DNA of 64,000 nt from Minisyncoccota bacterium (GTDB lineage: Bacteria > Patescibacteriota > Minisyncoccia > Phycocordibacterales > Phycocordibacteraceae): assembly GCA_022842585.1 (NCBI GenBank), contig JALHPI010000001.1:2298-66297 (forward strand), given 5' to 3'. Positions 50,012-51,651 of the stretch are shown piece by piece. Position 1 is the stretch's first letter, and each line of letters begins with the position of its first letter. The position numbers were made by a program, and so were the translations under genes. The notes beneath the pieces are model-generated. The model did no database searches. It worked only from the letters and a program-made list of their open reading frames with translations, and was not told where the DNA came from.

Positions 50012-51651
50012 AGGAGGTGCAATGCGCTCTTGTGTTCCGCCTATTCGCATCTGTTAAAGCGTCAATTGAGCGCTTCAACATCTACATCGGGATACGTTAT
50101 CCGACATCCGAGTGGTGTTTAGGGACATCCACTAACTCCCTACTCTAAAAGAGTAATCGACATTGGTATGCCTTTCGGGCGATACCGGTTCCAATTGGAT
50201 ATGTTCCACGAGCAGCTTCCGCTACCCGTGCCTTGTTACGACTTACTCCCTGTCATTGAATTTGCCGTAGTCCTGCAAAAAGCAAGATATCGGGCACCTC
50301 CAACTTCCTTGAGTTGACGGGCGGTGAGTACAAGACTCGAGAACGTATTCACCGTAGTATGGCTGACCTACGATTACTAGGGATTCCGGCTTCAAGAGGT
50401 CGTTGCAGACCTCTATCCGTACTGAGGACGGTTTTTGGGATTTGCTCCACCTTACGGTATTGCTTCCTTCTGTACCGACCATTGTATCACGTGTGCAGCC
50501 CAAGGCATCAAGGGACATGCTGATCTGGCGTCATCCTCACCTTCCTCCCCCGTGAGGGGGCAGTCTCGCCTGACATAAGTAACAGACAACGAGGGTTGCG
50601 TTCGTTACCCCACTGAAGGGAACAGCTCAAGCCACGAACTGACGACGACCATGCATCACCTGCCAAACACCCTCGAAGGATTCCTCCGTTTCTGGAGGCG
50701 TGCAGTTTGGTTTCTAGCCTTGGTAAGGTTCTTCGCTTGTCGACGAATTAAGCCACATGATCCACCGCTTGTGCGAGTCCCCGTCTATTCCTTTGAGTTT
50801 TAATCTTGCGATCGTACTACCCAGGCGGCTCGCTTACCGCGTTAGCTTAGTCTCACAGAGGGTCGATACTCCGTAAAACGAGCGAGCAACGTTTAGGGCT
50901 AGGACTACCGGGGTATCTAATCCCGTTCGCTACCCTAGCTTTCGTGTGTGAGCGTCAGATTTGGGCCAGTGCGCTGCCTTCGCCTTTGGTGTTCCCCACG
51001 ATATCAACGGATTTCACCCCTACACCGTGAGTTCCACGCACCTCTCCCAACCTCAAGTCGTACCGTTTCGCTTGCGCGCCGTAGGTTGAGCCCACGGATT
51101 TTACAAACGACTAATACGACCGCCTCGACACCCTTTACGCCCAGTGATTCCGGATAATGCTTGGGGCCTCTGTATTACCGCTCCTGCTGGCACAGAGTTA
51201 GGAGCCCCTTATTCATGTGGTACTGTCAATAATTTCATCCCACATAAAAGATGTTTACGTGCCGAAGCACTTCGTCCATCACGCGACGTCGCTCCGTCAG
51301 GCTTTCGCCCATTGCGGAAGATTCTCGACTGCGGCCTCCCGTAGGAGTATGGGCCGTGTCTCAGTCCCATCGGTGGGGGTCAGCCTCTCAGCTCCCCTAA
51401 ACGTCGTAGCCTTGGTAGGCCATTACCCTACCAACTAGCTGATATTGCGCACGCCGCTCCCGAAGCGATAAATCTTTAACCTTGCGGTACCATCCGGGAT
51501 TACCTCACCTTTCGGTAAGCTATACCAGACTTCGGGGTGCGTTCGTACGTGTTACTACCTCGTCTGCCGGTTGCCTTGCGGCCCCCTTGACTTGCATGCC
51601 TTATCCACGTCGCCAGCATTCATCCTGAGCTAGGATCAAACTCTCATTAAG
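50012..51651 (-). rRNA. rrs: 16S rRNA gene, with an apparent ~170-nt insertion between helix 45 and the anti-SD tail. The 3' boundary is uncertain; it could be about 50195 if the insertion/trailer is not part of the mature rRNA.
   Basis: 27F-site homolog at 51625-51644 (AGAGTTTGATCCTAGCTCAG). A 515F-region variant GTGCCAGCAGGAGCGGTAATAC at about 51172-51193. 1492R-site homolog (AAGTCGTAACAAGG) at 50231-50244. h45 with a GGAA loop at about 50200-50226. CACCUCCUUA at 50012-50021. Confidence 0.85.
50030..50048. repeat. 3' arm of the 19-bp leader/trailer complementarity (partner 51651-51669), 8 nt upstream of CACCUCCUUA in rRNA sense
   Basis: See partner feature. Confidence 0.7.

Follow-up and report, generated by a model that had tools for sequence, protein, structure and literature searches.

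Where does the small-subunit (SSU) ribosomal RNA (rRNA) of a bacterium end when a folded RNA occupies the place of its 3′ tail? In all domains of life, helix 45 (h45) followed within a few nucleotides (nt) by the 3′ tail is among the most constant features of SSU rRNA, and this region is the docking site for Era, KsgA, RbfA and mRNA. The question is raised by the 16S rRNA gene of a Minisyncoccota bacterium (family Phycocordibacteraceae), which is located in a 64,000-nt stretch of contig JALHPI010000001.1 (assembly GCA_022842585.1, positions 2,298 to 66,297; hereafter the window, numbered from its first letter). The sole canonical anti-Shine-Dalgarno (anti-SD) sequence of this gene is split from h45 by a structured block of ~160–190 nt; it lies ~190 nt past h45, within a pre-rRNA processing stem. 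The best explanation overall, to which we assign a probability of roughly 0.45, is that the block (50206-50047) is a clade-specific, vertically inherited 3′-terminal domain of the SSU rRNA, characteristic of a family- to order-level group within the Paceibacteria, a part of the Patescibacteria or Candidate Phyla Radiation (CPR).

The bacterial SSU model of Rfam (RF00177) covers positions 51651-50194 of the minus strand, on which all features of the 16S unit described below are located, over its full length (1354.7 bits, model positions 1-1533), and the 16S core, from the 5′ end to the end of h45, occupies 50207-51650. The first-pass annotation of this locus, made from the letters alone, had recognized a homolog of the 1492R primer site and an h45 with a 10-bp stem and a GGAA loop, followed by a structured insertion of ~170 nt ahead of the anti-SD. 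Both landmarks were confirmed, the former as AAGUCGUAACAAGG at 50244-50231 and the latter as CACGGGUAGC-GGAA-GCUGCUCGUG at 50230-50207 (100% paired, with one covarying pair, by sequence and Rfam alignment), and the insertion was borne out by the Rfam alignment, by the position of the anti-SD and by folding. In the covariance-model alignment that the annotation had proposed as a check, no canonical tail adjoins h45; model positions 1520-1533 (GGAUCACCUCCUUu) are forced onto GGAACAUAUCCAAU, the only sequence alignable there and the sole placement for the usual tail. The exact canonical anti-SD, CACCUCCUUA, is found at 50019-50010, 187 nt beyond h45; the motif had been read correctly, with a 2-nt slip in its coordinates (50012-50021). 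It provides a CCUCC core near the 3′ end of the SSU transcript, as a functional anti-SD does. By our own arithmetic, the chance of meeting a given 10-mer within 200 nt of h45 is ~2e-4, and ~1e-3 even when the CU-rich composition and ~12 lineages are allowed for.

The canonical tail position itself (50206-50197) is occupied by GAACAUAUCC, which together with the last G of h45 reads GGAACAUAUCC, as defined by the Rfam alignment and by invariant columns. This segment, cited as GAACAUAUCCAAUU, had previously been taken for a decayed, duplicated target site; it is invariant in all relatives, at 16S identities down to 85%, and is therefore under selection and not decaying. Of the earlier interpretation as a whole, the structured block that splits h45 from the anti-SD without a group I signature thus stands, and the decayed duplicate does not. 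The same unusual type of h45 sequence also occurs at L013:81-118 and at L011:6569-6606, the latter in a metagenome-assembled genome (MAG) labelled Fodinibius, a label that may reflect a binning error; the 16S 3′ ends of these two loci (GGAUCAAUUAAAC in L013 and GGAUAUAUUUAAUUU in L011) contain neither an anti-SD nor the domain.

The intervening RNA is more stable than its own shuffles (z = −3.9). An alignment of 20 distinct sequences (A1) was used to derive an RNAalifold consensus, which was edited manually by taking out a 3-bp pairing and putting in a pseudoknot, and pairs were then counted. In this structure, 98.1% of the cells form standard pairs, compared with 88.7% in shuffles, none of which (0/500) scored as high; double-sided changes are seen in 26 of the 52 pairs, as opposed to 5-7 when the 3′ partners are slid by 1-3 columns, and the covariation score is 0.324 vs. 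0.04-0.07 in the slid controls. The fold of the domain, consisting of five helices and a 3-bp pseudoknot, is strongly supported by this covariation. P1 (AUUGG 50195-50191 paired with UCGAU 50160-50156; feature 50156-50195) encloses P1a, a hairpin at 50186-50165 with a GAAA tetraloop closed by a C-G pair, and the RNAalifold helices concerned (2-4) include five pairs with double changes. P2 (50141-50155, here UACUCU-UUU-AGAGUA) is a hairpin of variable length that was read from the alignment, where raggedness precludes column counts; its cap in relatives is UUCG, GCAA, GAAA or GUAA, and the arm has grown to ~85 nt in L073 (L073:60-290) and by ~36 nt in L069 (L069:1140-1180). P3 (50133-50111, helix 6) has double changes in six of its eight pairs, and its loop contributes CCC (50124-50122) to the pseudoknot with GGG (50140-50138), in which two of the three pairs change from G-C to A-U and which is 100% paired (helix 5). 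P4 (50086-50105, helix 7) displays the conserved loop AUAACGUAUC, and P5 (50047-50085, helices 8-9, 10 pairs with double changes) is a long hairpin with the conserved loop CUCAAUUGA at 50070-50062. The several hairpins that had been noticed at first sight, among them the stem with the GAAA tetraloop, are thus real by folding and by sequence. In its clade-specific extra helices, conserved fold and variable length, the domain resembles an expansion segment.

Two pairings were considered for this fold and dropped. The 3-bp RNAalifold pairing between UCC at 50199-50197 and a GGA of the trailer strand is invariant, very short and in competition with the leader duplex described below; a loop-loop pairing of CCAAUUGG with UCAAUUGA was abandoned since the partner of AUYGG is UCGAU and the alternative would not survive the C variant. 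The P4 or P5 loops differ in L071, L072 and L073, and the loops can be called invariant only within the inner clade. At the gathering threshold, at E ≤ 1 and at E ≤ 10, SSU rRNA and tRNA-Ile were the only Rfam families detected; a search with the block alone at E ≤ 10 returned no family, and the weak matches of these searches are terminator look-alikes or noise.

Directly after P5, the strand GAAUAGGCGGAACACAAGAG (50046-50027) is perfectly complementary, in a duplex of 19-20 nt, to the leader strand UUCUUGUGUUCCGCCUAUUC (51670-51651), which stops 1 nt before the 16S 5′ end. Among eight full-length 16S genes (that of the window and those of L042, L046, L051, L058, L065, L071 and L072), these proximal strands have mean pairwise identities of 95% (leader) and 93% (trailer), and where they differ the pairing is largely compensated: at two pairs in L046, and at one pair in L058, accompanied there by one mismatch. 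Beyond this proximal helix, the CU-rich tail CGCAUUGCACCUCCUUAUUUUGG (50026-50004), which holds CACCUCCUUA, faces a purine-rich, SD-like leader strand (51671-51699, CCAAAAAUAAAGGUAGGAAAGCAAGUGAA). In cofolds of leader and trailer from six full-length genes, the duplex runs past the 20 bp and through the CU-rich tail, which in the window is paired with CCAAAAAUAAAGGUAGGAAAGCAAGUG, with small bulges, giving a stalk of ~43 bp (leader 51699-51651 with trailer 50046-50004). The duplex energies in the eight genes average −17.1 kcal/mol for cognate and −10.1 kcal/mol for non-cognate leader/tail combinations, and the cognate matching was equalled in only 2 of 20000 permutations. Mean identity in the same genes is 89.6% for the 16S core, 93-95% for the strands of the proximal helix, 67.5% for the domain and 34-35% for the distal leader and tail. 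The long leader/trailer complementarity, preserved by co-evolution, identifies a processing stalk; since the tail pairs and co-evolves with its own leader, CACCUCCUUA is part of the distal 3′ strand of this ~43-bp stalk. Both the 16S core and the extra domain are enclosed by it. The first-pass annotation, correct as to the motif, had missed the duplex between 50046-50027 and 51670-51651, the co-evolving distal part in which CACCUCCUUA lies and the terminator-like hairpin that comes after it.

A further relationship was observed at the two ends of the domain. The leader segment UGUGUUCC(GC) (51659-51668) is complementary to the trailer sequence GGAACACA and also to the post-h45 sequence GUGGAACAUA (50200-50209); as copies of one direct repeat, G[UC]GGAACA[UC]A, the latter two lie on either side of the domain. 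None of the three sites varies, and the leader UGUGUUCC can alternatively pair with the post-h45 GGAACAUA. This shared pairing may reflect a switch between two conformations or be what is left of an old duplication.

The architecture is not confined to the window. The best homologs of the MurD protein encoded next to the 16S gene are named Patescibacteria, Paceibacteria or Minisyncoccota, the exact window protein not being on record and contigs of an identical strain not being found. In all MurD-synteny loci that reach the 16S 3′ end (L001, L004, L005, L009, L010, L071, L072 and L073), the block follows h45, and ~20 further carriers were obtained by scanning metagenomes for two conserved loop motifs found in it, the other matches belonging to an unrelated protein-coding gene. 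In total, the block occupies the same site in at least 26 distinct sequences, drawn from assemblies of JGI, ENA, NCBI and Logan. As 16S identity among the eight full-length genes falls to 85.4%, the feature is old, at the family to order level. Neither the window nor any other locus has more than one copy of the block, and two scans of viral contigs returned nothing or a single chance match in a giant-virus gene; on these grounds, a mobile or repeated element was rejected. The idea of a sporadic insertion, as known from uncultured lineages with small genomes, therefore gives way to an old, vertically inherited, single-copy clade character. No sibling with an empty site was seen among the MurD-synteny relatives that reach the 16S 3′ end, and the metagenome search pattern itself required the element. 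A scan of GTDB species genomes with an h45-based pattern gave three loci, L013 among them and none with the domain, in a collection of MAGs that rarely include this end of the 16S gene. In L029, extra sequence at 338-455 splits GUCGUA|ACAAGG just upstream of h45, at a place that fits the position-1498 group I intron site catalogued for the CPR, such that this locus has two different insertions within 40 nt of each other.

The tail beyond the stalk helix has had a less uniform history. The window reads CACCUCCUUA, L067 CACCUCCUUU, L004 UCCUCCUCCUUU, L015/L035 UUCCUCCAC, L050 UUCUCCUUCC, L029 ACUCCUUAC, L009/L061 UCUCCAUUCC and L014 UCUCUCC, all of which keep a CUCC core; the core is unrecognizable in the rest, including L001 (UUCCUUAC), L005, L065 and L068 (UUUCUUA), and L046, L017, L052 and L071 (U-rich and unrelated). 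It is thus found 9-11 nt past the helix in about half of the lineages, spread over several branches of a rough neighbor-joining tree, and has been lost even inside the subclade of the window (L001, L005). Because the tail region otherwise drifts fast and the chance of the 10-mer is as low as ~1e-3, the perfect 10-mer points to descent from a real 3′ tail, with selection continuing in some lineages.

The use of Shine-Dalgarno (SD) sequences by these genomes is sparse. Among 63 predicted starts in the window, an SD of ≥6 nt precedes four and one of ≥7 nt precedes three, compared with 2 of 742 internal start codons serving as controls at ≥7 nt. A TANNNT box lies 4-10 nt upstream of 14 of the 63 starts vs. 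41 of the 742 controls (5.5%), and boxes of the TATAGT/TATACT type precede many first genes (e.g., the starts at 7350, 11027, 17490 and 22506). These sequence patterns suggest that many mRNAs are leaderless and that initiation is mostly leaderless or SD-independent. In pooled genomes with CUCC tails, an SD was found at 6/117 starts vs. 13/1143 control positions (p = 0.006); in pooled genomes without CUCC, it was found at 2/85 starts (p = 0.32). Counts of exact AAGGAGGUG 9-mers as SDs were discarded as misleading, most of them lying inside coding sequence as Lys-Glu-Val codons (e.g., all three in L051). The clearest SD in the window, AAAGGAGGUG, precedes the UUG start of a conserved gene for 169 amino acids (aa) at 44915. 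In this ~170-aa gene, the arrangement GAAAGGAGGUGUCCY before UUG is kept in three genomes (window 44902-44917, L001:6080-6093 and L004:5636-5649), where it is among the very few strong SDs; the product has a weak ferrochelatase/CbiX-like Pfam match below cutoff.

How, then, might the mature 3′ end be made? By analogy with known stalks, a double-strand-specific ribonuclease of the RNase III type would open the stalk, and the enclosed RNA, core plus domain, would stay in one piece, so that the mature SSU rRNA would be expanded at its 3′ end by the domain. The invariant helix would persist, wholly or partly, as a terminal helix joining the 5′ and 3′ ends, as in helix 1 of 23S rRNA. The CU-rich tail would, most simply, be what was the 16S 3′ tail in the ancestor before the domain displaced it; where CCUCC is kept, as in the lineage of the window, it may still act as an anti-SD for a few SD-led mRNAs, and in most relatives it would have decayed to a plain stalk strand, matching the mostly leaderless or SD-less initiation. 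Retention of the domain, which on the sequence data we prefer to a removable spacer at about even odds, is favored by four considerations. RNA enclosed by the pre-16S stalk is normally mature rRNA, as in Escherichia coli and Bacillus subtilis; the proximal helix surpasses the rRNA proper in conservation, which would be uncommon for a stem that is removed; in its variation, the domain is comparable to a variable region of rRNA, with P2 as an arm able to expand; and the persistence of CCUCC in some lineages calls for a function. Also counted in favor of the overall explanation is the SD signal, weak but significant, that only the genomes with CUCC tails display. Era, which binds GAUCACCUCC adjoining h45, is reported to be lost in most CPR (PMC10582724), and its loss would lift one constraint on the adjacency of h45 and anti-SD. 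The fullest version, in which the mature SSU rRNA carries a pseudoknotted domain of ~160-250 nt after h45, closed by the invariant helix between a 5′ extension and the 3′ strand, with the kept CCUCC on a tail emerging from that helix ~190 nt from h45, appears rather unlikely.

Several points weigh against retention, which is inferred from sequence. Every SSU rRNA known to us ends ~10-25 nt past h45, and the prior for a retained 3′ domain is low for that reason; moreover, discarded yet structured and covarying spacers exist, such as the eukaryotic internal transcribed spacers ITS1 and ITS2. The invariant GGAACAUAUCC looks like an SD-less tail in its ordinary place (cf. GGAUCAUUA of 18S rRNA and the 3′ end of L013), and most tails co-vary with the leader and keep no sequence, as expected of a stalk strand that is thrown away. 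Cleavage by RNase III within the perfect 20-bp duplex would cost the molecule its tail, which is predicted to be base-paired to the leader in the precursor cofold. SD frequency does not differ significantly between the groups of genomes with and without CUCC, and L058, of the latter group, has one gene with a perfect AAGGAGGUG SD. In addition, rRNA insertions of CPR are described as absent from transcripts, in a statement attributed to Brown 2015 where PMC9297842 cites it.

The strongest competitor, held tentatively and yet with appreciable weight, is an ITS1-like removable trailer: the mature 16S rRNA would end after h45 (~50195) with the SD-less GGAACAUAUCC(AAU), and the block would serve in the precursor only, as a platform for folding, timing or assembly factors that might offset lost factors such as Era, before being cut off and degraded once the stalk is opened, with CACCUCCUUA being a stalk strand and relic of an older tail. 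Such a trailer would account for a tail that sits inside the leader/trailer stalk, co-evolves with the leader and has lost its sequence similarity in many relatives, for a post-h45 motif that is invariant and aligned by Rfam to the canonical tail, and for SDs at only ~5% of genes, many of which look leaderless; it conforms with all SSU rRNAs that we know of, which end shortly past h45, and with an anti-SD at only 48% of Parcubacteria 16S 3′ ends (PMC9297842). However, it leaves unexplained the perfect 10-mer and the CUCC at a fixed position in about half of the lineages, in a region otherwise of ~34% identity, as well as a proximal helix more conserved than the 16S rRNA itself, and it needs either an extra endonuclease site or exonucleases capable of degrading a domain with a pseudoknot and tetraloop caps. 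A stable small RNA in its own right, transcribed along with 16S rRNA and released by processing in the manner of a spacer tRNA, would suit the compact conserved fold, the invariant loops and pseudoknot and the position between two likely processing regions; it is improbable, as no helix closes the whole domain, no Rfam family matches and the RNA never occurs apart from a 16S gene among the loci examined.

Splicing and delivery of the anti-SD in trans, both raised by the first-pass annotation, look unlikely, and the contest is between retention and simple removal as a trailer. For delivery in trans, the cleaved tail would remain attached to a 5′ extension of the 16S rRNA by means of the invariant 20-bp helix; the perfect duplex does adjoin the 16S 5′ end, with CACCUCCUUA 8 nt beyond, but the cuts would have to spare the helix on both strands, for which we know of no precedent, a cut between P5 and the helix has no support in the sequence, and the tail is degenerate in most relatives, making this reading very improbable. 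Still less credence is given to an intron-like element whose excision would religate the tail to h45 and restore a near-canonical 3′ end, even though CPR 16S genes are rich in introns (PMC11270868) and an insertion occupies the known position-1498 site a short way upstream in L029. The earlier judgment that the RNA is too short for a group I intron was upheld: no group I core was matched in Rfam at E ≤ 1 (49900-50700), nor any group I, group II or other ribozyme family at E ≤ 10 (block alone), and 160 nt is below the usual size. The block contains no open reading frame (ORF), homing endonuclease or other, and spurious ORFs across it are scarcely ever annotated in the gene tables of the loci; the sporadic distribution of group I introns is not seen either, all eligible MurD-synteny relatives carrying the block vertically and at a single site, with no empty-site sibling. 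Splice-site features are not conserved and the 3′ boundary region varies freely; the joined product would read GGA-UUGCACCUCC..., which is not canonical; the leader-pairing strand would lie inside the element, where it is pointless for an intron; and no complementarity between the regions of 50206 and 50020, and hence no bulge-helix-bulge motif at the boundaries, was recognized by eye, without a formal search. A chance motif or an assembly chimera is negligible: beyond the general frequency of rRNA misassembly in metagenomes, nothing speaks for it, the 10-mer probabilities given above (~2e-4, or ~1e-3 corrected) speak against it, and the architecture is not an assembly artefact because it recurs in at least 26 distinct sequences from independent assemblies.

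Each component of this arrangement has known relatives. As in the pre-16S stalks of E. coli and B. subtilis, the rRNA is enclosed by a long duplex of its two flanks, the leader contains a hairpin and a boxA-like element, and leader and trailer covary; here, however, 160-250 extra structured nt are enclosed after h45, the anti-SD lies in the distal half, beyond the proximal helix, and not in the enclosed RNA, and the proximal 20 bp are invariant in sequence across relatives down to ~85% 16S identity. If retained, the domain would resemble expansion segments and helix 1 of 23S rRNA in being a surface-tolerant extra domain with a variable arm (P2) and a helix formed from both ends of the molecule; no SSU rRNA known to us is expanded at its very 3′ end. 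With eukaryotic ITS1 and ITS2 it shares a conserved, covarying fold directly past the SSU 3′ end and, if the mature end lies after GGAACAUAUCC, a likeness of that end to GGAUCAUUA of 18S rRNA, but the unit is bacterial and monocistronic, and a terminator follows in place of a downstream rRNA. Intervening sequences (IVSs) excised by RNase III from 16S and 23S rRNA are likewise extra RNA of an rRNA gene, possibly removed here too without religation; an IVS is a hairpin tip replaced by a single long stem, whereas a multi-helix, pseudoknotted domain past the last native helix is present here. Like the rRNA insertions and introns of CPR (Brown et al. 2015; PMC11270868), the block is lineage-restricted extra 16S sequence that, as in many short ones, lacks an ORF; it differs in lying past h45, beyond position 1498, in lacking intron or homing-endonuclease features, in being strictly vertical with a conserved fold, and in being invisible to gene ends defined by Infernal. 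In the catalogue of CPR rRNA insertion sites by Tsurumaki et al. 2024, the most 3′ site named in the text is 1498, and none lies past h45 (PMC11270868). Tsurumaki et al. 2022 found CCUCCU at only 48% of the Infernal-defined 16S 3′ ends of Parcubacteria and suggested that no SD helix forms there (PMC9297842). The present lineage also has no CCUCCU at its Infernal-defined 3′ end, but a canonical or degenerate copy is found ~190 nt downstream; judging from the sequences, the “lost” anti-SD may in part be one that was displaced and then decayed. A literature search found no description of a post-h45 domain or extension.

A whole clade thus places a conserved, folded RNA domain right after h45, with its sole canonical anti-SD inside a processing stalk, an arrangement that combines a CPR rRNA insertion with a pre-rRNA processing stalk and would be unprecedented if the domain is retained. 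Retention would make it the first 3′-terminal expansion of an SSU rRNA, with initiation depending on a relocated or absent anti-SD; retention together with the tail would, if true, amount to a 3′ minor domain wired anew, for which no ribosome is known to offer a parallel. Removal would place it beside ITS1 as a bacterial equivalent: a conserved domain confined to the precursor, in organisms in which standard assembly factors have been lost. In either case, the reported anti-SD loss in about half of the Parcubacteria has to be re-read, gene ends set by covariance models hide part of the rRNA unit, and an alignable RNA (at least 26 sequences, with a supported structure) is in hand for work on CPR ribosome biogenesis.

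The remaining elements of the transcription unit were located as follows. A sigma-70-like promoter, TTGACG-17-TAGTAT (51761-51789; consensus scan only, 9/12 matches), is followed by a 5′-terminal leader hairpin and a U-run, boxB-like or terminator-like (51734-51753; hairpin scan), with counterparts in L058, L065, L071 and L072, and by GCUCUUUGACAA (51711-51722), read from the sequence, which we take to be akin to the boxA of rrn operons. Past the tail, the terminator-like hairpin AAAAGCCCCC-GUAU-GGGGGCUUUU (49967-49992) closes the unit; it is GC-rich, was aligned as the terminator stem of two leader Rfam models, has analogs after the 16S tail in all relatives and falls short of the T-run threshold of the terminator scan. 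Given the promoter-like site, the leader hairpin, the boxA-like element and this hairpin, the 16S unit looks monocistronic; no 23S or 5S rRNA gene is present in the 64,000 nt of the window. Genes for PrcB-like, MurD, MurI and MurC proteins are located downstream, and those for an amino-acid kinase, a NUDIX protein and SecDF upstream. Within the 16S core, the 515F primer site (51176-51197) reads GUGCCAGCAGGAGCGGUAAUAC, with GA where CC is usual, and would be mismatched by the universal 515F primer, a situation familiar from many CPR.

In L001:830-1000, L005:260-400 and L014 (~120 nt past the 16S terminator), a promoter-like TTGAC(A/T)-17-TATACT is followed by a hairpin, ~130 nt and a terminator. 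The ~130 nt are collinear with the 5′ domain of 23S rRNA (AAGGACGUG ... GCUGCGAUAAGCC ... GGAUUUCCGAUGGGGCAACCC), have no counterpart in the window, and might be what remains of an operon that was split, or else a 5.8S-like fragment of 23S rRNA with a gene of its own. The tRNA-Ile(GAU) gene that follows the 16S gene in the window (49565-49640, minus strand; identified by Rfam) is simple and without nesting. In L001:1320-1540 and L005:740-1075, a complete tRNA-Ile(GAU) is nested in partial copies of itself through inverted-repeat linkers, with a 5′ piece that stops in the D-loop on one side and the corresponding 3′ piece on the other; the nesting is three levels deep in L005. An element carrying a tRNA seems to have been inserted repeatedly into the D-loop of tRNA-Ile. 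Finally, conservation in relatives extends to the stretch at 49700-49930 (…CAGAUGCG…UUGAUUCACGCG…GGUGGGGAUUUCUGGUA), located between tRNA-Ile and the 16S terminator and overlapped by a small antisense ORF at 49776-49967 on the plus strand (63 aa, called as 59 aa in L001-L003, with no Pfam match); the stretch may represent a small protein or a non-coding element.

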